Positions 5,143 through 57,665 of a stretch of 64,000 bases of DNA are shown piece by piece. Under the pieces are notes generated by a model. That model saw nothing but the letters and a program-made list of their open reading frames with translations. It did no database searches and was not told the origin of the DNA. The translations under genes and the position numbers were made by a program. The stretch lies in contig QHSI01000104.1 of the NCBI GenBank assembly GCA_003221515.1, forward strand, positions 32,568-96,567, read 5' to 3'. Each line of letters starts with the position of its first letter. Positions within the stretch are counted from its first letter, which is position 1. Source of the DNA: Candidatus Rokuibacteriota bacterium. GTDB taxonomy: Bacteria; Methylomirabilota; Methylomirabilia; Rokubacteriales; CSP1-6.

Positions 5143-6285
5143 ATGAAGCTTGAGCTGAGCGCGGAGCAGCAGATGATCCAGGCGATGGCGCGGGAGTTCG
5201 CCGACTCGGCGATCAAGCCCATCGCCGCCGAGATCGACCGCGACGCGCGGTTCCCGCACGAGACCGTCAAGCGCATGGGCGAGCTCGGCCTCATGGGGAT
5301 CGCGGTTCCGGAGCGATGGGGAGGCAGCGGCGCCGACGCGGTGTCCTACGTGGTGGCGCTCGAGGAAATCGCCCGGGCGTGCGCGAGCCACGCCGTGGTG
5401 ATGTCGGTCAACAACTCGCTCTACGGTGACCCGCTGTTGCGCTACGGCACCGACGTGCAGCGCGAGCGCTTTCTGAAGCCCGTGGCCTCCGGCCACACCC
5501 ACGGGTGCTTCGCGCTCACCGAGCCCCAGGCCGGGTCGGACGCGACGAACCAGGCGACGCTGGCGGTCCGCGACGGCGCTGACTACATCGTGAACGGTCG
5601 CAAGCGCTTCATCACCACGGGTCGCGAGTCGTCGTTCGCGCTGGTCTTCTGCCAGACTGACCGCGCCGAGGGGCATCGCGGCATCTCCGCGTTCGTGGTC
5701 GAGAAGGGCGCGCCCGGCTTCACGGTCGGCAAGACGGAGGACAAGCTCGGCATTCGCGCCTCCGACACCGCCGAGCTGATCTTCGAGGATTGCCGCGTGC
5801 CGGCGGCGAATCGGCTCGGCGACGAAGGCCAGGGATTCAAGATCGCGATGACGGCGATCGACGGCGGACGGATCGGGATCGCCGCCCAGGCGGTCGGGAT
5901 CGCGGCCGGCGCGTACGAGCGCTCGGTCGCCTATGCCCGCGAGCGGAAGGCGTTCGGTGTTCTCATCGGCCAGCACCAGATGGTCCAGTGGATGCTGGCC
6001 GACATGGCGACGGCCATCGACGGCGCCCGGCTCCTGACCCTGCGCGCCGCCACGCTCAAGGACGGCGGCCGGCCCTACCGGACCGCCGCGGCGATGGCCA
6101 AGCTCTTTGCTTCCGAGACGGCGATGAAGGTCGCGACGGACGCGATCCAGGTCCACGGCGGCTACGGCTTCATCAGGGAGTACGAGGTCGAGCGCGCGTT
6201 CCGCGACGCGAAGGTCACGCAACTCTATGAAGGCACGTCGCAGATCCAGAAGCTCGTCATCGCGCGCGACCTCCTGGGAGACCAC

Positions 6286-11023: not shown

Positions 11024-11808
11024 CCGCCGCGGGCGGCGCGCTCATCGCCATCGAGTCCGTCGCCAAGCGCTACGTCACGAGCTCGGGTCCAGTCGACGCG
11101 CTCGACGACATCTCGCTCTCGGTCGCCGAGGGCGAGTTCTGCACGCTGATCGGCCCCTCCGGTTGCGGCAAGTCGACGCTCCTCGGCATGCTCGGCGGCC
11201 TCGTGATGCCGGACCGCGGGCGGCTGCTGGTCGCGGGCGCGCCGGTGACGGGCCCGGATCCGCGCCGGGTCGCCACCGTGTTCCAGGACGCCGGCCTCTT
11301 CCCGTGGCGCACGGCGCTCGAGAACGTCGAGTTCGGGCTCGAGCTGCAGGGCGTCTCGGCCGAGCGCCGGCGCCGGACGGCCAGCGAGCTCCTCGGCCCG
11401 CTCGGGTTGCGCGGCTTCGCCGAGCGCTACCCGCGCGAGCTCTCGGGCGGAATGAAGCAGCGGGTCGCCATCGGGCGCGCGCTGGCCATCGACACGAAGA
11501 TCCTCTTGATGGACGAGCCGTTCGGCGCCCTCGACGAGCAGACGCGCGTGCTCATGGGCGAGTGGCTCCTCGACATCTGGCGGCGCACGCGAAAGACCGT
11601 CATCTTCGTGACCCACAGCCTGCACGAGGCGCTGTTCCTGTCGACGCGCGTCGCGGTCATGACGGCGCGGCCGGGACGGATCAAGTCGGTGCTCGAGCTG
11701 ACGATGGAGTACCCGCGATCGATGGAGTCGCCCGAGATGGTCGCGCTGCGGGCCAAGCTCTGGAGCGAGATTCGCGAGGAGTCGCTGCGGGCGATGCAAT
11801 CGACGTGA
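11020..11808 (+). CDS. ABC transporter ATP-binding protein, NitT/TauT (nitrate/sulfonate/bicarbonate) family
   Basis: Walker A 'GPSGCGKST', signature '[15 protein letters not shown]', '[11 protein letters not shown]'; GTG start overlapping ACAD stop. Confidence 0.8.
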
Positions 11809-17185: not shown

Positions 17186-18511
17186 CTAGCTCGGCTCCGG
17201 CTGCACGAGGTACGAGCGGCGCACGCGGGCCTGCACGTCGACGACGACGTCGCGCTCCAGCGTGATCTCGACCTCGTGCTGCTCGGCGGACCAGCGGCTC
17301 ACCGTCGCGAGCCAGCCGAGGCTCCGCCCGGCCTGCGGCGCGATGCGGCGCCCGCGATAGACCAGCGTCCGTCGCTCGGGCGCGTTGAGCTCCTCGCGCT
17401 CCTCGGTGTTGGGTCCGCAGAGCCGCAGCACCTCCTGGGACGTCGTCGACCCGGGCGTGACCCGGGCGAGGGTGTCGCGCGAGAGGACCACGCCGGTCTG
17501 CCGCACGGCGCCCGGGCCGAGCCGGACGCGGCCGGCGAGCCTCGCGCCGAAGCGCCGCACCAGCGCCATGACCAGCGGGGTCGCCAGGTTGCCGAGCGCG
17601 AAGAAGACGATCGGGATCAGGACGGGCATCCACGCGCGCCAGCCGTGGAAGTACGCGAACCGTACCGTGAGCACCTGCGGGCTGAGGCCCTCGGACGGGT
17701 CGATGAAGAGCGAGACCTCCTCCGTGGTGTCGAGCGTCTCGCTGAGCCGGCGGCGGGCCGAGCTGGGAAACACCTCGTGGATTTTCAGGTGCTCGGAGTC
17801 GCGGAGATTCACGATCAGCTGCGACGGATCGGCGGCCAGACGGATGATCCGATCCCGCTTCTCGAAGTAGAGGGGGAACAGCGCGCGGGGTCGGACGTCG
17901 TTGAAGGTGAGCGACAGCGCGTGCGTCGGGCCCCAGAACGCGTCCTCGATCCAGGTCGCTTGCCGCCGGCGGAGGAGGTTCGGCTGCTCGATGCGGAGAT
18001 CCATCAGGAACGTGCGATTGGCGAGCATGGGGGTCCACGGGATCCGCACGTAGGTCGCCGGCGACGTCAGGCCGAGCGGCCCGCCCTCCTGGATGAACGT
18101 CACGAACGGGGCGCCACCCGCGGTGGGCTGCGGGGGGACGTCGTCGCCGGCGCGGTAGAGACTCTCGGCGAAGAGCGGCAGCCGCCCCTCGGCGATCGGC
18201 ACGAAGCCGCGCGCCTTGATGGAGGCGACCAGCGCCGCGTCAGGTGCCGCGCCCGTCAGCGCGCCGCCGACCGGGCCGGGCCAGAGGAGGTAGAGGTCCT
18301 GCTCGATGGCGGCCCCGCTCTTCGCCGGCGGAATCACGAGACTCCACAGGACGTCGACCGTGACCGCGTGCAGCTCCGGCGTCACGTTCGCGCGGACGAA
18401 GAGCGGGCCGATCGTGAACTCGGGGCTCGGCCGCGACGCGAGGAAGATCTGGCCCTCCGCGACGGTGGGCGCCGCGGCCAGGACCAACACCGCGAGCCAG
18501 GCGCGGCGCAT
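17186..18511 (-). CDS. Hypothetical membrane-anchored protein (signal peptide, ~300-aa extracytoplasmic domain, one TM, ~120-aa C-terminal domain); paralog of 18524-19867
   Basis: 441 aa; cleavable signal 'MRRAWLAVLVLAAAPTVAEGQIF'; TM 'WMPVLIPIVFFALGNLATPLVMAL'; no known family recognised. Confidence 0.6.
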   Translation of the reverse strand: MRRAWLAVLVLAAAPTVAEGQIFLASRPSPEFTIGPLFVRANVTPELHAVTVDVLWSLVIPPAKSGAAIEQDLYLLWPGPVGGALTGAAPDAALVASIKARGFVPIAEGRLPLFAESLYRAGDDVPPQPTAGGAPFVTFIQEGGPLGLTSPATYVRIPWTPMLANRTFLMDLRIEQPNLLRRRQATWIEDAFWGPTHALSLTFNDVRPRALFPLYFEKRDRIIRLAADPSQLIVNLRDSEHLKIHEVFPSSARRRLSETLDTTEEVSLFIDPSEGLSPQVLTVRFAYFHGWRAWMPVLIPIVFFALGNLATPLVMALVRRFGARLAGRVRLGPGAVRQTGVVLSRDTLARVTPGSTTSQEVLRLCGPNTEEREELNAPERRTLVYRGRRIAPQAGRSLGWLATVSRWSAEQHEVEITLERDVVVDVQARVRRSYLVQPEPS

Positions 18512-18523
18512 CCGCGGCGCGCC

Positions 18524-19867
18524 TCAGGCCGGGTTGGGCTGGGTCAGGCGGGTGCGGTGCACCTGGGCCTGAACGTCGCGCACGCGATCGCCGTCGAGCT
18601 CGATCTCCAGCTCGTGGTGCTCGACGTCCCAGCTCTGCACCGTCGCCAGCCATCCGAACTGCCGGCGCCGGTGGGGGACCGTGCGGCGCCCGCGATAGAC
18701 CAGCGTTCGCCGACCGGGCGCGTTGAGCCGCTCGCGCTCCTCCGGATCGGGTCCACAGATCTTCAAGATCTCGTCGTACGTCGTCTCGCCCGGGGCGATC
18801 CGGGTCAGCGTCTCGCGCGGGACGATCGTGCCGACATGCTGCTCGGCGCCGGCGCCGCTGCGCGGCCCGAAGCGGATGCGTCCCTGGAGCCGCGCGCCGA
18901 GCCGCCTGGCGAGGGTGGCGACGAGGGGGCCAGCGACGTTGCCGAGGACGAAGAACAACGTCGCGAAGAGCACCGGCGCCCACGACTGCCAGCCGGAGAA
19001 GTAGCCGTACTGCACGGTCAACACTTGAGGGCGGAGACCCTCCGACGGATCGATGTAGGTCGAGACGATCTCGGTCCCCCGGCGCGACTCGCTCGTGCGC
19101 CGTTGGCTCGAGCCCGGAAAGACTTCGTGGATCTTGAGGTGGTCGGAGTCCGCGAACGTGATGGTGAGTGTCGATGGATCGTCGGAGAGGTGGACCACCC
19201 GATCGCGATACGCGAGGTACATGGGGAACGTGGCGCGCGTGCGCACGTCGTTGAAGCTCAGCGTGACCAGGTGACGCTCGCCCCAGAGGAAGTTCTCCAG
19301 CCAGGTGGCCTGCTTCGGCCGCCTGAGCCCGGTGAGACGCATCCTGAGGTCGATCAAGAACGAGCGGTCGACGAGCCGCGGCGTCCACGGGATCCGGATC
19401 CAGGTGGCCGGCGTGGGCAGGCCGAGCGGCCCCGCCTCTCGAGTGTAGGTGACGAACGGCGCGCCGCCAGGGAGCGGCTCCGGCTTCGCGCGCTGAGGGC
19501 CGGAATACACGGCGCGGGCGGACAGCGGCAGGCGGCCCTCGCGGGCGACCTGGAACCCACGTTCCTCCACGGTCCGGCGCAGTGCCGGGTCCGGTTCTCC
19601 CGCGACCATCTCGCCGTCCACCGCGCCCGGCCACAGGAGATAGAGATCTTGCTCGAGCGCAGCGGCGCCGACGTTCGGCGGCACCACGAGACTCCAGAGC
19701 AGGCTGACTTCGACCGGACCACCGGCCGGCACCACGTTCGCGCGGATCGACAGCGGACCGATCGTGAACTCCGGCTTCGGCTTGGACGCGAGAAAGATCT
19801 GAGCGTGCGCCGGCGCCGCGACCAGCGCCAGCAGCACGGCGACGAGCAAGACGAGCAAACGGCGGGT
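18524..19867 (-). CDS. Hypothetical membrane-anchored protein, tandem paralog of 17186-18511; start uncertain (no in-frame ATG before the signal peptide; CTG 19867 or TTG 19849 candidates)
   Basis: Highly similar along its length to the neighbour ('QIFLASKPKPEFTIGPLSIRANV'); the 5' end of the ORF reads through a 21-bp tandem repeat and repeat core B. Confidence 0.55.
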   Translation of the reverse strand, partial: TRRLLVLLVAVLLALVAAPAHAQIFLASKPKPEFTIGPLSIRANVVPAGGPVEVSLLWSLVVPPNVGAAALEQDLYLLWPGAVDGEMVAGEPDPALRRTVEERGFQVAREGRLPLSARAVYSGPQRAKPEPLPGGAPFVTYTREAGPLGLPTPATWIRIPWTPRLVDRSFLIDLRMRLTGLRRPKQATWLENFLWGERHLVTLSFNDVRTRATFPMYLAYRDRVVHLSDDPSTLTITFADSDHLKIHEVFPGSSQRRTSESRRGTEIVSTYIDPSEGLRPQVLTVQYGYFSGWQSWAPVLFATLFFVLGNVAGPLVATLARRLGARLQGRIRFGPRSGAGAEQHVGTIVPRETLTRIAPGETTYDEILKICGPDPEERERLNAPGRRTLVYRGRRTVPHRRRQFGWLATVQSWDVEHHELEIELDGDRVRDVQAQVHRTRLTQPNPA

Positions 19868-19902
19868 TGTCCGCAGACCGGCGCGGGTTGTCCGCAGACC
19901 GG
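19862..19902 (+). repeat. 2 x ~21-bp tandem repeat (GCGGGTTGTCCGCAGACCGG) abutting repeat core B
   Basis: Direct tandem duplication seen in sequence. Confidence 0.7.
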
Positions 19903-19904
19903 TG

Positions 19905-19975
19905 CCCCGAGCATCTATCTCAGGCCACCCTCGGTTCAAACCGGCCTCACGGTCCCCGTTACAACATTCCCGCGA
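19905..19975 (+). repeat. Copy B of dispersed ~65-bp repeat core
   Basis: CCCCGAGCATCTATCTCAGGCCACCCTCGGTTCAAACCGGCCTCACGGTCCCCGTTACAACA; between the SBP stop (19982) and the paralog gene 5' end. Confidence 0.6.
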
Positions 19976-19981
19976 CAATAA

Positions 19982-47588: not shown

Positions 47589-47796
47589 GGGATTTCCCCG
47601 GTGTCAATCCACTCGGTTTTCGACACGGAGACTTACACCTTGTAGAAGAAATACGCGTGGTGCTCCGACCCTGGCGCCCGCAACGTCCTGAGTTTGCGCG
47701 CGTCGCTCACGTGGCAGGCCCCTTGCTCTCGCACACCTTGGCGCTCAGTCCGTCGGGCCGAGTTGGTAGTACGGCGACAAAGCGAGGAGACTGGCA

Positions 47797-48714
47797 ATGC
47801 AGCTGTCGCGCCGGGACTTTCTGCGTAGCTCACCACCGACCCCGGCCATGAGCGCTCCAATGGCCACCAGGCTCGCCGACCTCGCCCGCGATCATCCGGA
47901 GTGGCGGCCGTGGCTGGCGCTCCTTTCCGTCGCGCAAGGAACGTTCGGCGATCCGCTCTGGCTTCGAGCCGTTCCGGATGGCCCGGCCACCGTGGAGCCG
48001 GAGCCGTTGCCGGCGCCGCTCCTGGAGGGCGCCGTGCTCATGATCGACCCTGACGGTGCGGACCGCTTCGTTCGCCAGATCTTCGACGTCGCCAAGAGCA
48101 ACGGCGGATCCGCGGCGCCGCTCGAAGCCGCGGCGGGCGACGCGCGCCTGGACGCGCTCGCGATCCTGGAAGCGGCGATTCGTCAGGACGGGCGTGGCTT
48201 GAACCGGTGGGCGACCTCGCTGGCCGTCGAACCCTCGGCGCTTCGCGTCGTCTCGGCCGTCGTGGCCACGCCGCTGCTCCACGCTTGCCGCGGCGCCTGG
48301 CACGACCGGCTGCCGCATGGATGGACGCAGGGCTACTGCCCCGTGTGCGGCGCCTGGCCGACGCTCGCCGAGGCCCGCGGCGTGGAACAGAGCCGTCATC
48401 TTCGCTGCGGCCGCTGCGGCGGCGACTGGCGCGGGGACGGGCTGGGTTGCCCCTTCTGCGCCAACGCGGACCACGCGATGCTGGGCTCGCTGGTCGGCGA
48501 CGAGCCGCGGGAGAGCCGAAAGATCGAGACGTGTGGCGCGTGTGGCGGCTATCTGAAGTCGATCGCCACGCTCGGGGCCACGCCAGCCGACGCGCTCACG
48601 CTCGTCGACCTGGACACGGTCGAGCTCGACATCGCCGCGCTCGAGCACGGATACGTGCGGCCCGAGGAGCCGGGCTATCGCGTGAGGGCGCGGGTGGTCG
48701 GCGCGTCCCAGTGA
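47797..48714 (+). CDS. fdhE: FdhE-like protein (formate dehydrogenase accessory protein family; four CxxC motifs)
   Basis: CPVCG, CGRCG, CPFC, CGACGGY arranged as in FdhE; true start may be the internal Met at ~47848; curious Tat-like 'SRRDFLR' in the upstream in-frame extension. Confidence 0.55.
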   Translation: MQLSRRDFLRSSPPTPAMSAPMATRLADLARDHPEWRPWLALLSVAQGTFGDPLWLRAVPDGPATVEPEPLPAPLLEGAVLMIDPDGADRFVRQIFDVAKSNGGSAAPLEAAAGDARLDALAILEAAIRQDGRGLNRWATSLAVEPSALRVVSAVVATPLLHACRGAWHDRLPHGWTQGYCPVCGAWPTLAEARGVEQSRHLRCGRCGGDWRGDGLGCPFCANADHAMLGSLVGDEPRESRKIETCGACGGYLKSIATLGATPADALTLVDLDTVELDIAALEHGYVRPEEPGYRVRARVVGASQ

Positions 48715-52231: not shown

Positions 52232-53650
52232 ATGAAAATGTACGTGGCCGGCCAGTGGATCGACAAGGACCAGAAGATCGAGGTGCGCAACTCCTACGAC
52301 AACAGCGTCATCGACACCGTGCCGCGCGCCGATCGGAGCGACATCGAGCGCGCGCTCCAGTCGGCCGAGCGTGGCGCCCGGGCGATGGCGAAGCTGACGA
52401 GCTACGAGCGCTGGAAGATCCTCCATCGCGCGGCCGAGCTGCTGGCCGCGCGCGTCGAGGAGCTCGGCACGCTGATCTCGAAGGAGGAAGGAAAGATCCT
52501 CGCCGAGGGACGCAGCGAGGCGCTGCGGGCCGTCGACACGATCATGGAGTCGGCCGAGGAGGCCAAGCGGGTCCACGGCGAGACGGTCGCGCTCGACGCG
52601 GCGTCCCACGGCAAGGGGAAGTTCGGCGTGACGATCCGCGTGCCGTGCGGCGTCGTGGTCGCCATCAGCCCCTTCAACTTTCCGCTGAACCTCGTGTGTC
52701 ACAAGGTCGGCCCCGCGATCGCGGGCGGCAACGCCGTGATCGTGAAGCCGGCGACCGACACGCCGCTGTCGGCGATCCGGCTGACCGAGATCCTGCTCGA
52801 GGCCGGTCTGCCCCCCGAGGGCATCAACACGCTCACCGGGTCGGGTGGGGACATCGGCGACGCGCTGGTGGCCGATCGCCGCGTGCGCAAGATCACCTTC
52901 ACCGGGAGTCGCGACGTCGGCGAGCACATCTGCAAGACGGCCGGCATCAAGCGCGTGACGATGGAGCTCGGCTCGAACGCGCCGGTGATCGTGATGCCCG
53001 ACGCCGACCTGGACAGGGTCGCCGCCGCGGTCGCGTCGACCGGTTACGCGAACGCGGGGCAGGTCTGCATCTCCACCCAGCGCGTGCTGACCGCGTCGCG
53101 CGTCTACGACGACTTCCTCTCCGCGCTTCGGCCCAAGGTCAGCGGGCTCAAGGTCGGCAACCAGCTCGACGCCAGCGTCCAGATCGGCCCGATGATCCGC
53201 GAGAAGGAGGCGGTCCGGGTGGACGAGTGGGTGCGCGAGGCGGTGGCGAGCGGCGCGCGGGTCGTCACCGGCGGCACGCGCCAGGGCGCCATGTACGCGC
53301 CGACCATCGTGGCGGACGTCAAGCCGGACATGCGCATCTCGTGCGACGAGCTGTTCGGTCCGGCCGTCGCCGTCTCGCCGTTCACCGACATCGACGAGGC
53401 GATCGCGCTCGCCAACGACACGAACTACGGGCTCGCCGCCGGGATCTTCACCGAGAACCTCGAGTGGGCGTGGAAATTCGCGCGCGAGGTGCAGTCGGGG
53501 AACCTGCACGTGAACTGGGGCCCGCAGTGGCGCGCCGATCGCATGCCGTACGGCGGCCTCAAGGAGTCGGGCTTCGGAAAGGAGGGGCCGGCCTACGCGA
53601 TCGAGGAGATGACCGAGCTGAAGATGGTCATCTTCCACCTCCAGTCCTGA
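52232..53650 (+). CDS. NAD(P)+-dependent aldehyde dehydrogenase
   Basis: 472 aa; 'MELGSNAP' (catalytic Glu region) and 'GQVCISTQRV' (catalytic Cys); RBS GGGAGGAG. Confidence 0.9.
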   Translation: MKMYVAGQWIDKDQKIEVRNSYDNSVIDTVPRADRSDIERALQSAERGARAMAKLTSYERWKILHRAAELLAARVEELGTLISKEEGKILAEGRSEALRAVDTIMESAEEAKRVHGETVALDAASHGKGKFGVTIRVPCGVVVAISPFNFPLNLVCHKVGPAIAGGNAVIVKPATDTPLSAIRLTEILLEAGLPPEGINTLTGSGGDIGDALVADRRVRKITFTGSRDVGEHICKTAGIKRVTMELGSNAPVIVMPDADLDRVAAAVASTGYANAGQVCISTQRVLTASRVYDDFLSALRPKVSGLKVGNQLDASVQIGPMIREKEAVRVDEWVREAVASGARVVTGGTRQGAMYAPTIVADVKPDMRISCDELFGPAVAVSPFTDIDEAIALANDTNYGLAAGIFTENLEWAWKFAREVQSGNLHVNWGPQWRADRMPYGGLKESGFGKEGPAYAIEEMTELKMVIFHLQS

Positions 53651-54116
53651 CGGGCGCGACGCGGCCGCCAGTCATCCGCACGAGGTCGTCGGGCGTGAGC
53701 TTGAAGACCGTGTTCGGGTGACCGGCCGCCGCCCAGATCTCCGGCCACTGCATCAGGTCTTCGTCGATCAGGATCGTGAGCGGCTCGGTGTGGGCGATCG
53801 GCGGGACGCCGCCGATCGCGTAGCCCGTCTTGGCGCGCACGAAGTCGGCGTCCGCGCGCGCGATGGGCTCGGCGAGGAGCCCGGCGACCTTCAGCTCGTC
53901 GACGCGATTGGCGCCGCTCGCGACGACCAGCACGGCGCGCTGGCTCTGGGCGCCGCGGAACACGAGCGACTTCGCGATCTGCTCGACGCGGCAGCCGACC
54001 GCGCGCGCCGCCTCGGCCGCCGTCCGCGCCGGCTGCTGCAGCGCGACCACGGAGTGGCCGCCGCCGACCGCGGCCAGCGCGTCCTGCACTCGCTGAACGC
54101 TGGCATTTGGGATCAT
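53628..54116 (-). CDS. YbaK/ProX-type aminoacyl-tRNA deacylase domain protein
   Basis: 163 aa from 'MIPNASVQRVQDALAA'; 'VKSLVFRGAQSQRAVLVVASGANRVDELKV'; ORF-track N-terminal extension is the 50-bp tandem duplication. Confidence 0.65.
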   Translation of the reverse strand: MIPNASVQRVQDALAAVGGGHSVVALQQPARTAAEAARAVGCRVEQIAKSLVFRGAQSQRAVLVVASGANRVDELKVAGLLAEPIARADADFVRAKTGYAIGGVPPIAHTEPLTILIDEDLMQWPEIWAAAGHPNTVFKLTPDDLVRMTGGRVAPVRTGGGR

Positions 54117-54212
54117 TGATAGACTCGCCTCGTCGGAGGCACCGTCTCGGCTCGTACGACCATCATTGATAGACTCGCCTCGTCGGAGCACCGTCTCGGC
54201 TCGTACGACCAT
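54114..54212. repeat. 2.2 x tandem ~49/50-bp direct repeat filling the redoxin-ybaK intergenic region
   Basis: CATTGATAGACTCGCCTCGTCGGAG(G)CACCGTCTCGGCTCGTACGACCAT twice, copies differ by one base; begins with the last codons/stop of the upstream gene. Confidence 0.7.
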
Positions 54213-54949
54213 CACTTGATCGCGCGCACCGCGCGGGCGACGTCGGTCGGGTCGGGTCGCACCTGGTAGTTGTCGGCCACCGTGAGCCAGCGGACGATCC
54301 CGTCGCGGTCGAGGACGATGGTCGCCGGCGCCGGCACGTCCTGGCCCTTGTCGCCACCGCGAGCGTGGAGGAGGCCGTACCGCTGCGTCACCGCGAGGTC
54401 GCGGTCGGCGAGAAAGCGGTAGCGGGCCTTCAGCCGCTCGGCGAGCCCCTGGCTCCGCTCGTTCGTATCGGGGCTGATCGCCAGGATCTGCACGCCCTCG
54501 TCACCCAGCTCTGTGAGCACCGCTCCAAGCCCTTGGAGCTCCGACACGCAGAAGGGTCACCAGTAGCCGCGGTAGAAGACCACCACGACCGGCGTGCGGC
54601 CGCGGAACGACGCGAGCGCGACGGGCGTTCCCTTGGCGTCCGGCAGCGTGAAGTCCGGCGCGGGCTGGCCGACGCGCAGTATGGGCGGACCCAGCGGGAT
54701 CCTCGCCATGACGAAATTGAAGTAGCCGCCGAGCCCCAGGAGCGTCACCGAGAGCGCGAGCGCAATCAGATTGGGCCAGCGGGGCGCTCGCACCGTGGCA
54801 ACGGCCGCGATCGCCGCCGCGAGCGCGAACGCGGCGACGTAGAGCGCCGGGTGGTTGCGAATGACGGGCACGCGCAGGAAGGAGAAGTAGCCGACGATGG
54901 CCCCGATCGAGAGCGCCACGCTGAACAGCGCCGGGCCGTACTTGCTCAT
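54212..54949 (-). CDS. Membrane-anchored thioredoxin-fold thiol:disulfide oxidoreductase/peroxiredoxin-like ('redoxin') with in-frame TGA at the first position of the W-[TGA]-P-F-C active-site motif: candidate selenoprotein (UxxC) or, alternatively, a nonsense pseudogene
   Basis: Two ORF-track pieces (54557-55075 and 54212-54547) are the same frame separated only by TGA at 54557-54559; combined 245 codons: 3 TM helices, then 'GQPAPDFTLPDAKGTPVALASFRGRTPVVVVFYRGYW*PFCVSELQGLG...'; 7-bp hairpin GCTCCAA-GGGC-TTGGAGC begins ~17 nt after TGA. Confidence 0.5.
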
Positions 54950-55644
54950 CGCCCGAGAACGATCCGGTCGAAGGTCTCCGCGAACGCGTAGCCCTTCGGC
55001 TTGCCGAGCTCGGCCGAGCGTTCGCGCACGCGCTTCTCGACCCCCTCGAAGTCCTTGAACTGGCTCGCGTGGCACGCCAGCGCCTTGATCTTCAGATCGA
55101 TGACGTCGGTGATGTCAACCACGAGGTTCGGGGTCTCCCACTGCATCAGGTAGACCTCGAGCACCTTGTGCGGCTCGTAGTCGGGCATGAGCTCCGGGAA
55201 CGACATGTGGTCGCGGGCCAGCGGATAGACGCAGTCGAGGGCGACGCCGGCGGTGACGCGATGATCGCGGTGCGAGCCGCCGAGGTTGTACGTGCGATTC
55301 GGGTTCATCGCGATCAGAAGGTCCGGACGCCACTTGCGGATCTGTCGCGTCACGTCGCGGCGCAAGTCGCGGGTGTCCTCGACCTCACAGTCGGGATAGC
55401 CGAGGAACTCGATGCGCGACACCCCGAGCGTGCGGGCGGCGTTGCGCTGCTCCTCCGCGCGAATCAGCGCCAGGCGCTCGGGCGTCATCGTACGGTCGCT
55501 CGAGCCCTTGTTGCCGTTCGTCACGATCACGTACGTGACCTCGCAGCCGTCCTTGACCAGCTTGGCGATGGTTCCACCGGCGCCGAACTCGGAATCGTCG
55601 GGGTGCGCCGTGACGACCATAGCGCGTTGGATCTTCTCGGACAC
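54946..55644 (-). CDS. LmbE/PIG-L-family N-acetylglucosaminyl deacetylase (MshB/BshB-like)
   Basis: 232 aa; 'AMVVTAHPDDSEFGAGGTIAK' and 'GGSHRDHR' zinc-binding motifs; GTG start with AGGAGG RBS. Confidence 0.8.
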   Translation of the reverse strand: MSEKIQRAMVVTAHPDDSEFGAGGTIAKLVKDGCEVTYVIVTNGNKGSSDRTMTPERLALIRAEEQRNAARTLGVSRIEFLGYPDCEVEDTRDLRRDVTRQIRKWRPDLLIAMNPNRTYNLGGSHRDHRVTAGVALDCVYPLARDHMSFPELMPDYEPHKVLEVYLMQWETPNLVVDITDVIDLKIKALACHASQFKDFEGVEKRVRERSAELGKPKGYAFAETFDRIVLGR

Positions 55645-55970: not shown

Positions 55971-57654
55971 ATGCCGACGGCCGCTCGGCGCCGGGCGGGA
56001 GTCGTGGCCCTGCTCGGTCTCCTCGCCGGCGCGCTCCTTCTGATGCCGGCGCCGGGCAACCCGGGAGCACTCAGGCTCGCCGGGATCAGCCTGCTCTGGT
56101 GGTACGCCGCTCTCGTCGCTCCGCTCGCCGCCGTGCTCGTGGTGGTCGCCGTCGAGCGGGGGGCCGCGGCCGAGGGCGCGGCGCCCGCCGGCTCCGCCGC
56201 GGTCAGCGTCGCGGCGTGGGCGTCACCCATCGTCCTCGCGGTCGTCGCGGCCTCCGTCTTCACCGGCGCCGTCGAAGCGCCGGCCGCGATTCTCGCGATC
56301 ACGGTGGCGCCGCTGATCGCGCTGCTCGTCCCGTCCACGCGCGAGACGATACGCGAGAATCCCGTCGCGCCCGTGGCGACGGGCCTGAGCATCGGGCTGA
56401 TCCTCTGGGCGAACCTCTCGCTGCTGGGTGACGTCGCGGGCGCACTGGGCTATCCACGGCGCACGTCGAGCCTGCTGGCCGCGGCGCTCGCCCTGGTGGC
56501 CGTCCGCTTGCGCGCCGACTTCGTCGCCGGCGGTAAGGGGCTCGTCCTGCTCTACGCCGGCGTTCTCGGCTTCGTCGTCCCGGTGGCGTTCGTCGCGCCG
56601 ACGGTGGCGGTTGCTCCTTGGAACGCGTGGCGCGACGTGGCGTCGAGGCCGGCACTCACGTTCGGCGAGCGCCATGCGTGGGTGACCGAGGGTCGGACCC
56701 TCGTGATGCCGGTCGCCCTCGACTTCACGGAGGCGCATCGCGTCACCGCGCTCGCGCCGGCGACGTTTCGAGTCTTCGAGCTCGACCGGCTCCGCGAATG
56801 GCAGCTGCGCGCGGGCGACTCGCTCTCGCTGCGCCCCGGCGACCGGCTGGTGCTGGACGCCGGGGCGCGCTTGAAGTTCGAATCGGGCAAGCGTGTCCCG
56901 GGGGCGGCGGCCTCGGGTATCACGTGGGCCGATCCGCCGGAGCGGGGAACCGCGTCGACGGCGGCGCGGGCGCTCGGGGCGGTGTTCTCGCTGGTCGGAG
57001 GCGCGCTCGCGCTGTTCCGGTCGCGCCGGGCCGCGTCCGGTGAGGGCCTGCCGACCGGCGCGGGACTCATGCTCTCGCTGGTGCTCGTGGCCGCCTGCCT
57101 CGGTATCTACGCCGCCTATGCCGCGCCAGGGCTTTCCATCGGGGTACCGCCGCTCGCCGCGGTGTTCGGCTTGCCGGCGGCGGTGGTTCCGGGCGCTGCC
57201 GGCCGGACCCTCGCCCTGGTGGGCGCCGCCGGGCTCCTCGTCCTCTTCCTCGCCACCGCGACCGCGTTGAGCGACATCCTCGACGCGACGCTCGCGGGTT
57301 CGGGCCGACGGAAGTCGGGCTTCTCCATCGGGTCGCCCCTGGTGCGAACGTTGCTCTCCGATCCACCGACCGTGATCCTGGTCCTGTCGGCCGGCGCCGC
57401 GGTCGTGTCGCCGGACGACGCTTCGCGCATCCTGTTCGCCGGGCTCGGGCTGACGGCGTCGACGATCGTGGCGCCCCGTCTCGCGGGCGACGGCCGCTGG
57501 GCGCGGCTGGTCGGCTCGCTCGTCGGCATGATCGCGTTCGCCGCGGTCGCCTTGTACGGTAGGCACCTGCCGGGGTGGGCCGGCGCGGTGTGGACCTACC
57601 CGGCGCTCGCCGCCGCCCCCTTGGCGTGGACCGCGAGCCGTATAATAGAGCGCC

Positions 57655-57665
<11 letters not shown>
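55971..57665 (+). CDS. Hypothetical polytopic integral membrane protein (Ala/Leu-rich, ~12 predicted TM segments)
   Basis: 564 aa; GC3-consistent; no family recognised; overlaps uvrA start by 11 nt. Confidence 0.55.
57641..57646 (+). promoter_or_regulatory. TATAAT -10 box 8 nt upstream of uvrA ATG, inside the 3' end of the preceding gene
   Basis: Perfect hexamer; same geometry as 55959. Confidence 0.25.

Follow-up and report, generated by a model that had tools for sequence, protein, structure and literature searches.

A membrane-anchored redoxin gene with an in-frame UGA at its active site, very probably a selenoprotein gene, in a Rokubacteriales bacterium

The window analysed here is a stretch of 64,000 nucleotides from Candidatus Rokuibacteriota bacterium (contig QHSI01000104.1 of assembly GCA_003221515.1, positions 32,568 to 96,567 of the forward strand). 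Its minus strand carries a gene for a membrane-anchored redoxin with a TGA codon at the active site. The listing of open reading frames (ORFs) splits the frame in two (54557..55075 and 54212..54547); a preliminary description made from the sequence alone took the two fragments to be one frame interrupted by TGA alone and proposed that the TGA encodes selenocysteine (Sec). Reading and translating the sequence confirms the single frame: from 54949 to 54212 it is continuous, running from an ATG (54949-54947) through 245 sense positions to a terminator (TGA, 54214-54212), with TGA 54559-54557 (codon 131) as its sole internal stop. The translation begins MSKYGPALF and ends AVRAIK*, and the context of the internal stop is ...VVVFYRGYW-[TGA]-PFCVSELQGLG..., which places it, as described, at the first Cys position of a W-C-P-F-C active site. 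Everything that the preliminary description reported is present in the sequence. In a systematic scan of the window, this TGA alone combines a redox motif with coding signal on both sides. The features of the gene are as follows.

54212..54949, minus strand: predicted complete selenoprotein gene for a membrane-anchored peroxiredoxin-like (Prx-like)/thioredoxin-like (Trx-like) UxxC redoxin of 245 residues, with Sec at 131 and a frame broken by the TGA alone

54557..54559, minus strand: predicted selenocysteine codon UGA, codon 131, first position of UxxC; the TGA is conserved and distant homologues have Cys

54548..54550, minus strand: Cys134 (TGC), the putative resolving partner of Sec131, invariant in 70 members and equivalent to a peroxidatic Cys

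54522..54539, minus strand: predicted core of a bacterial selenocysteine insertion sequence (SECIS; bSECIS for the bacterial form), with a 7-bp stem GCUCCAA/UUGGAGC and apical loop GGGC, from RNAalifold, synonymous freezing and the bSECIS model

54704..54931, minus strand: N-terminal membrane anchor of three hydrophobic helices, from Kyte-Doolittle hydropathy, conservation across subfamilies and the AlphaFold model of the homologue P0084

54287..54673, minus strand: AhpC/TSA redoxin domain, residues 93-221, including Pro208 (54326-54328), from Pfam, a PDB search and Foldseek

54212..54214, minus strand: true terminator, also TGA, from the sequence read and its translation

When U is replaced by C, the Pfam AhpC-TSA model matches residues 93-221 straight across the TGA (E = 2.2e-30, 105.6 bits against a cut-off of 26) and Redoxin is matched as well. 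A sequence search of the PDB gave the BCP entry 2cx3 as the best match (E = 2.5e-12), with thioredoxin-family proteins, ResA and TlpA lower. In the alignment with 2cx3, Cys134 falls on the peroxidatic Cys, Sec131 on the Ser/Thr of the T/SxxC motif and Pro208 on the catalytic Arg. Fourteen positions are invariant across the 70 members: F125, Y126, R127, G128, W130, U131, P132, C134, D161, D182, P208, D214, W221 and R231. The family thus departs from the canonical peroxiredoxin triad (Thr/Ser-x-x-Cys plus Arg), with Sec131 in place of Thr/Ser and the invariant Pro208 in place of Arg. The NCBIfam equivalog models for peroxiredoxins score 20-56 bits against cut-offs of 123-272, and those for ResA, TlpA and DsbE score 17-41 bits against cut-offs of 123-230. 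Curated selenoprotein models also stay below their cut-offs: the SelL-related NF040769 (47.3 against 120), PrxU NF040737 (32.9 against 270) and WAxxUGC NF041054 (32.4 against 300). The AlphaFold model of the Cys homologue P0084 (pLDDT 82.8) shows three helices near the N-terminus and a confidently predicted Prx-fold domain in which CxxC opens a helix, with the reservation that P0084 is only 30% identical and is a Cys homologue, not the window protein itself; Foldseek with this model finds BCP/PrxQ at target-normalised TM-scores of 0.8-0.9. The product has a peroxiredoxin fold with a thioredoxin-like active site, Sec131-Pro-Phe-Cys134, at the start of a helix. Since Sec and Pro stand where a peroxiredoxin has its catalytic Thr and Arg, a selenol/thiol oxidoreductase is the most likely activity, rather than a canonical peroxidase. 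From the motif and the established chemistry of thioredoxin folds, we would give thiol-disulfide reductase rather than peroxidase chemistry about an even chance.

The codon was then compared among relatives. In a scan restricted to one genome per species, two close relatives, both metagenome-assembled genomes (MAGs) of Candidatus Rokuibacteriota (L001, 85% identical; L002, 62%) have the same TGA with the frame intact after it, whereas 18 more distant homologues with the motif all have TGC or TGT at the aligned codon. The nearest of these Cys forms, of the type YRGYW-C-PFC, are found in Gemmatimonadaceae and Pyrinomonadaceae. A metagenome scan with an alignment of protein clusters that end in ...FYRGYW (see below) found 577 relatives, of which 80 were kept, and W-TGA-P-x-C is present in almost all of the 80. 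By the strict motif the TGA occupies the same codon in 60 loci (L001, L002 and 58 others); a relaxed motif adds ~25 with U-P-(S/L/A)-C, making ~85 loci with 34-100% identity to the window protein. These loci differ from one another throughout, so they are not assembly copies of one sequence. In every 3'-complete locus among the 60, the frame stays open for 109-122 codons past the TGA, and the 53 complete genes end in TGA (24), TAG (25) or TAA (4). Within subfamily A, the group that includes the window gene, the entropy at the three codon positions is 0.57/0.37/1.02 bits after the UGA and 0.41/0.30/0.87 bits before it; because the coding pattern with a variable third position continues past the UGA, the downstream part is evidently translated.

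Protein databases show the same codon from the other side. A protein search gave ~50 clusters of 134-150 residues that all end in ...FYRGYW, the gene callers having terminated each of them at this codon. When residues 1-130 were searched against 1.84 billion representative proteins (clusters at 50% identity), there were 1143 matches; among the best 149 of these, 106 end exactly at ...RGxW and only five continue as W-C-P-x-C. The Cys forms P0167 and P0256 have a hydrophobic N-terminal region that matches that of the Sec family, and U is absent from all 275 database proteins retrieved. Two further entries are recorded as they stand. P0087 (JGI metagenome, 202 aa) reads FYRGYW-W-PYC, with Trp at the Sec/Cys position; the codon is either a genuine TGG or a TGA that a gene caller working with another code rendered as Trp. 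P0109 (JGI contig of 1664 bp) is 98% identical to the window redoxin over its first ~40 residues but beyond them its sequence is unrelated and includes a PF22580 domain. Either the assembly is chimeric here or a closely related strain has undergone a rearrangement.

These comparisons bear on two alternatives. In the first, which the preliminary description itself had raised, the gene would be a very recent nonsense pseudogene, dead since a TGC or TGT mutated to TGA. A single point mutation would indeed yield one in-frame stop at a Cys position, but the same codon is TGA in ~85 loci that span 34-100% identity, for which independent nonsense mutations are not credible; the frame beyond it is intact in every complete locus checked, with third positions the most variable; and the 106 clusters among the best 149 stop at the same residue. 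The conserved TGA and the coding selection downstream exclude this alternative, whose probability we put as extremely small. In the second, the UGA would be a true stop that ends a 130-residue membrane protein, perhaps with a separate C-terminal fragment starting from the GTG at 54547. This has on its side the gene callers, which split the gene into products of 130 and 102 aa in 4/4 of the near-identical contigs shown (of 17 with an identical PIG-L protein), and the existence of a GTG-initiated ORF of 111 aa. It would, however, cut the AhpC-TSA domain in two, the N-terminal piece stopping a single residue short of the active site, which the C-terminal piece would lack; the Cys homologues are single polypeptides, the frame relation between the two parts is kept in all loci, and synonymous sites in the hairpin that follows the UGA (described below) are under selection. 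We regard a true stop as highly improbable.

The hairpin that the preliminary description had reported ~15-17 nt downstream is present, as a perfect 7-bp stem, at 54539..54522 (GCUCCAA-GGGC-UUGGAGC); it starts 17 nt after the UGA, at a UGA-loop distance of 24 nt. Among the 783 TGA trinucleotides on the minus strand, 16 (~2%) precede a comparable hairpin (perfect stem of >=7 bp, G in the first two loop positions, 16-37 nt after the TGA), and the 76-nt minimum-free-energy fold is ordinary for its GC content (z = -0.64); the hairpin alone is thus only suggestive, and the comparative data carry the case. An Rfam search gave nothing relevant, and we are not aware that it includes a generic family for bacterial SECIS elements. 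The genes with TGA form three groups with three different hairpins at the same place. Subfamily A (the window gene, L001, L002 and ~30 metagenome loci) has UGA-N17-GCUCCAA-GGNC-UUGGAGC; RNAalifold finds the 7-bp stem in 31/31 sequences, with changes limited to U-A to U-G (three sequences) and A-U to G-U (one). In subfamily B (41 unique sequences) the stem is CUCCG/CGGRG with loop AGUUR. Its variable stem position 28 always pairs with U16 (26 U-G, 15 U-A), and the second base that varies belongs to the loop; an earlier model for this subfamily, GCAAC/GUUGC, was dropped because it leaves C-A mismatches in most sequences, while all of them satisfy the RNAalifold stem. Subfamily C (two loci) has CAGCU-CGGGA-AGCUG. 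In the published bSECIS model (PMC13188914), an upper stem of 4-16 bp carries a small apical loop that has G in the first two positions and is separated from the UGA by 16-37 nt. The window hairpin fits this geometry (7-bp stem, GGGC, 24 nt), and so do subfamilies A, B and C as a whole: their loops are 16-24 nt away from the UGA and have G among the first two bases.

In subfamily A the stem codons GAG, CTC, CAA, CTT and GGA are fixed in 25-26 of the 26 sequences, and for CAA, CTT and GGA this holds despite their A/T endings in genes with ~90% GC at third positions (GC3). The Gly codon of the loop, GGN, has the most variable third position of the region (1.71 bits). Similarly, AAC, TCC, GAG and CGG are fixed in subfamily B, where the Leu codon of the loop alternates between TTA and TTG. 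Codons of invariant residues are frozen in 4/5 cases near the UGA versus 0/26 elsewhere in subfamily B (p = 1.6e-4) and in 3/6 versus 4/43 in subfamily A (p = 0.03), the significance being overstated by these Fisher tests because the sequences are related and not independent. Synonymous freezing in stems together with freedom in loops is the standard signature of an RNA structure laid over coding sequence. By a rule-based definition, a SECIS-like hairpin follows the codon in 79/79 unique TGA sequences versus 4/18 Cys sequences. One Cys form, from a Pyrinomonadaceae MAG (L016, ~6131..6147), has at the position of the Sec forms a SECIS-like hairpin, GCAGCUGGCGGAGCUGC (6 bp, -8.9 kcal/mol), which could be left over from an ancestor with Sec or could have arisen by chance from palindromic CAGCUG codons.

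The same data bear on what is inserted at the UGA. Read-through might occur without Sec, a near-cognate tRNA or a suppressor inserting Trp, Cys or Arg while the hairpin just stimulates the process. The lack of Sec machinery in the window and flanks would suit such a reading, as would the W recorded at this position in P0087. The position, however, is that of the redox-active Cys of the homologues, a classic Cys/Sec pair; Trp or Arg in place of the nucleophile would inactivate the motif, all three hairpin types obey the bSECIS geometry of the SelB type, and the phylum is reported to be rich in selenoproteins. We consider read-through without Sec to be very unlikely. Reassignment of UGA to sense throughout the genome (of the code 4 or code 25 type) has nothing to recommend it beyond the in-frame TGA itself. 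TGA terminates the redoxin and many other full-length genes of the window with complete Pfam domains (aldehyde dehydrogenase, pyruvate kinase, UvrA) and is therefore a normal stop here, a single TGA in 64 kb has coding signal on both sides together with a redox motif, and the GC content of the window is 69%; the probability of reassignment is vanishingly small.

Several observations weigh against the reading of UGA as Sec, in addition to the ordinary fold energy, the relatedness of the sequences in the Fisher tests and the distance of the modelled homologue. Pfam scans of ~50 coding segments of the window found no SelA, SelB, SelD or formate dehydrogenase, ARAGORN detected no tRNA gene, and hence no tRNA-Sec, in the 64 kb, and the flanks of the 60 related loci contain no sel genes or tRNA-Sec, ARAGORN giving only a tRNA-Val. 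With no Sec machinery in the window or flanks, the presence of this machinery is supported only at the level of the phylum, from the literature. RNAalifold finds no compensatory covariation on both sides of the stems within each subfamily, as the stems are nearly invariant, so that the RNA evidence rests on the freezing of synonymous sites and on the different hairpins of the subfamilies. Finally, the PIG-L/YbaK-like gene order that surrounds the gene in subfamily A (see below) is absent from subfamily B, and no conserved partner gene is common to the subfamilies. For the phylum, Rokubacteria are placed as the order Rokubacteriales within Methylomirabilota (PMC8780371); Methylomirabilota are reported to use Sec, with 63 selenoprotein genes predicted in one MAG (PMC13188914), and [NiFeSe] (Sec-type) hydrogenase variants have been reported from them (PMC13582414). 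A literature search for Rokubacteria together with selenocysteine gave nothing specific. The preliminary description had also taken an fdhE-like gene (47770..48711) as a hint of formate dehydrogenase. This did not hold up: FdhE_C scores 24.2 bits against a cut-off of 27 and TIGR01562 42.7 against 187.65, and with the match below threshold and no formate dehydrogenase in the window the hint adds no evidence. The gene itself, on the plus strand, matches only the C-terminal FdhE domain and lies between a gene for a Zn-dependent dehydrogenase and one for an AMP-binding enzyme.

Taken with these points, the evidence strongly supports the proposal that the gene encodes a Sec-containing redoxin with three transmembrane (TM) helices and a SECIS directly downstream: the TGA is conserved, it pairs with Cys in homologues, coding selection continues beyond it and the hairpins are in place. 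The locus is very probably a genuine selenoprotein gene whose apparent internal stop specifies an active-site selenocysteine. The data establish that there is one frame, that its UGA is conserved and pairs with Cys in homologues, that the hairpin is under selection and what the fold is; the insertion of Sec at codon 131 is predicted from sequence with high confidence. In the mechanism that we propose, the ribosome would read UGA 54559-54557 as selenocysteine owing to the 18-nt hairpin 17 nt downstream, which, by analogy with known systems, would recruit SelB-GTP-Sec-tRNA(Sec); translation would then run for 114 further codons to the real stop. In the folded protein the selenolate of Sec131 would attack an oxidised substrate (a disulfide, sulfenate or peroxide), a Sec131-Cys134 selenenylsulfide would form, and an external reductant or partner would re-reduce it.

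The membrane anchor claimed in the preliminary description is also supported. A Kyte-Doolittle scan gives hydrophobic segments at residues ~7-25, 34-53 and 60-82, in agreement with the three helices at the N-terminus of the modelled Cys homologue P0084. The anchor is kept across the subfamilies, with the loop residues R31, P34 and P85 conserved. In the anchored family, the N-terminal tail and loop 2 together contain 4.8 Lys and Arg residues and loop 1 contains 1.3, and the nearest Cys homologues (of the YRGYW-C-PFC type) bear signal peptides or lipoprotein boxes. Together, the signal peptides and lipoprotein boxes and the distribution of Lys and Arg suggest that the redox domain faces outwards; somewhat more probably than the reverse, it would, like that of TlpA and ResA, be exposed on the outside of the cytoplasmic membrane.

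The two immediate neighbours of the redoxin gene are on the same strand.

54946..55644, minus strand: PIG-L/LmbE-family deacetylase, BshB-like (Pfam PIG-L, 9.2e-34; BshB1, 105 bits against a cut-off of 182.5)

53628..54116, minus strand: YbaK/EbsC-like aminoacyl-tRNA editing-domain gene, downstream and co-directional (Pfam tRNA_edit, 1.7e-27)

The stop of the PIG-L gene overlaps the ATG of the redoxin (ATGA), so that the two genes are probably co-transcribed and translationally coupled. The model closest to the PIG-L protein, BshB1, is that of a bacillithiol enzyme, and the gene could possibly provide a link to low-molecular-weight thiol metabolism. The order PIG-L, redoxin, YbaK-like is found in ~20 subfamily A loci and in 4/4 of the near-identical contigs shown. 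As this synteny is confined to subfamily A and may be lineage inertia, we propose no partner. Pfam scans of window segments found no cytochrome-maturation or CcdA/DsbD genes nearby. In a subset of the subfamily B loci (L073, L079, L089, L104, L105 and L114), the 1-3 kb upstream encode, as judged by eye from the sequences, a sigma factor of the ECF type, a YCII-like protein and either one or two membrane proteins that resemble DoxX. The junction between the redoxin stop codon and the ATG of the YbaK-like gene (54116) contains a 50-nt tandem repeat (54112..54220; 2.2 copies, 96% matches), which duplicates the gene junction: ATCAAGTGATGG and ATCAATGATGG. The related contig L116 has a scaffold gap of Ns exactly at the position of the repeat (11433..11688), and the repeat may be variable in copy number or hard to assemble.

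Elsewhere in the window, 55971..57665 (plus strand) encodes a very hydrophobic protein of 564 residues without a Pfam or NCBIfam match, which loci of the Rokubacteria type (L001, L036-L041 and L116-L119) likewise have, in conserved form, between uvrA and the PIG-L gene. Two tandem paralogues of ~440 residues (17189..18523 and 18527..19981, minus strand) also match no Pfam or NCBIfam model; their N-termini resemble signal peptides (…QIFLAS(K/R)P.PEFTIGPL…), and both are hydrophobic over a stretch in the C-terminal part. They lie in the same frame with a TGA between them and were considered as a read-through pair, but each begins at a start of its own. The ORFs of UvrA and, after it, of pyruvate kinase are likewise in one frame and joined by a TGA, and they too are separate genes and not a case of read-through.

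The redoxin matches a known class of selenoproteins, to judge from its sequence; the assignment was made by the PF00578 domain and the UxxC motif as described for the class, of which WP_010940744.1 is a reference member. According to a review (PMC13188914), Prx-like thiol:disulfide oxidoreductase selenoproteins (PF00578, UxxC) were described by Kryukov & Gladyshev in 2004. They appear as 'Prx-like protein' in the survey of the Sargasso Sea (PMC1088965), where they are defined by distant peroxiredoxin homology and a thioredoxin-like UxxC in place of the TxxU of Sec-peroxiredoxins, and as 'Prx-like 1' in the Global Ocean Sampling (GOS) survey (PMC2398784). The window family shares with this class the AhpC/TSA-fold domain, the UxxC active site, a SECIS right after the UGA and the existence of homologues with Cys. 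It differs in its conserved three-helix N-terminal anchor, of which the marine surveys make no mention ('transmembrane' occurs 0 times in PMC2398784), and in its origin, as it comes from soil organisms of the Rokubacteriales type whereas the class surveys are marine. The balance of Sec and Cys differs as well: 106 versus 5 in the anchored clade (among the best 149 of 1143 matches), compared with 225 Sec versus 2,740 Cys for Prx-like 1 in the GOS survey (PMC2398784).

As the class has been known for ~20 years, a selenoprotein of this kind is no surprise to a specialist, and the finding leaves knowledge of Sec decoding and of the Prx-like selenoproteins unchanged. What is mildly new is the three-helix anchor with its probable outward orientation, together with the fact that the clade is large and, in soil organisms, strongly favours Sec. 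We suggest, tentatively and with more doubt than confidence, that the anchored UxxC redoxins are a distinct, large, almost always Sec-containing and not yet curated family, typical of soil Rokubacteriales and other soil lineages, that displays a selenol on the outer face of the cytoplasmic membrane. If so, it would be an extracytoplasmic selenoenzyme with a substrate of its own, for example in the repair of oxidised envelope proteins or the reduction of external oxidants. The gene adds direct evidence, at the gene level, for the use of selenocysteine in soil bacteria of the Rokubacteriales type and suggests that a membrane-anchored, probably outward-facing selenol redoxin is among their characteristic selenoproteins. 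It is split or cut short wherever it has been seen (four contigs, and more than 100 clusters that end at the UGA), which makes it a clean case for correcting selenoproteins in soil metagenomes. The three hairpins with one SECIS geometry form a natural data set on the evolution of SECIS elements within a constrained coding sequence.

Three better-known systems can be set beside the window gene. The hairpin resembles the SECIS of the E. coli fdhF type in being located within the coding region, a short way 3' of the UGA, and in its small apical loop, whose first base is G. In subfamily A the loop seen most often is GGUC (13/26), the same four bases as in the fdhF SECIS, where the UGA-loop distance is slightly shorter than the 24 nt found here. 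Unlike that element, the window hairpin has no evident bulged U and its sequence is otherwise unrelated; its 24 nt are within the 16-37 nt of the bSECIS model. For the protein, BCP/PrxQ (Aeropyrum pernix BCP, 2cx3, and Xanthomonas PrxQ) are the closest relatives of solved structure by both sequence and fold, with Cys134 as the counterpart of their peroxidatic Cys. They differ from the window protein in having Thr/Ser where it has Sec131, Arg where it has Pro208 and no counterpart of its membrane anchor, and the peroxiredoxin models stay far below their cut-offs. The best functional analogy may be with the extracytoplasmic thiol-disulfide oxidoreductases of the TlpA/ResA/CcmG type, which have an N-terminal membrane anchor, a thioredoxin-fold domain, W-C-x-x-C and a conserved Pro before the β-strand ...IVLD; these proteins have one TM helix where the window protein has three, and Cys where it is predicted to have Sec.

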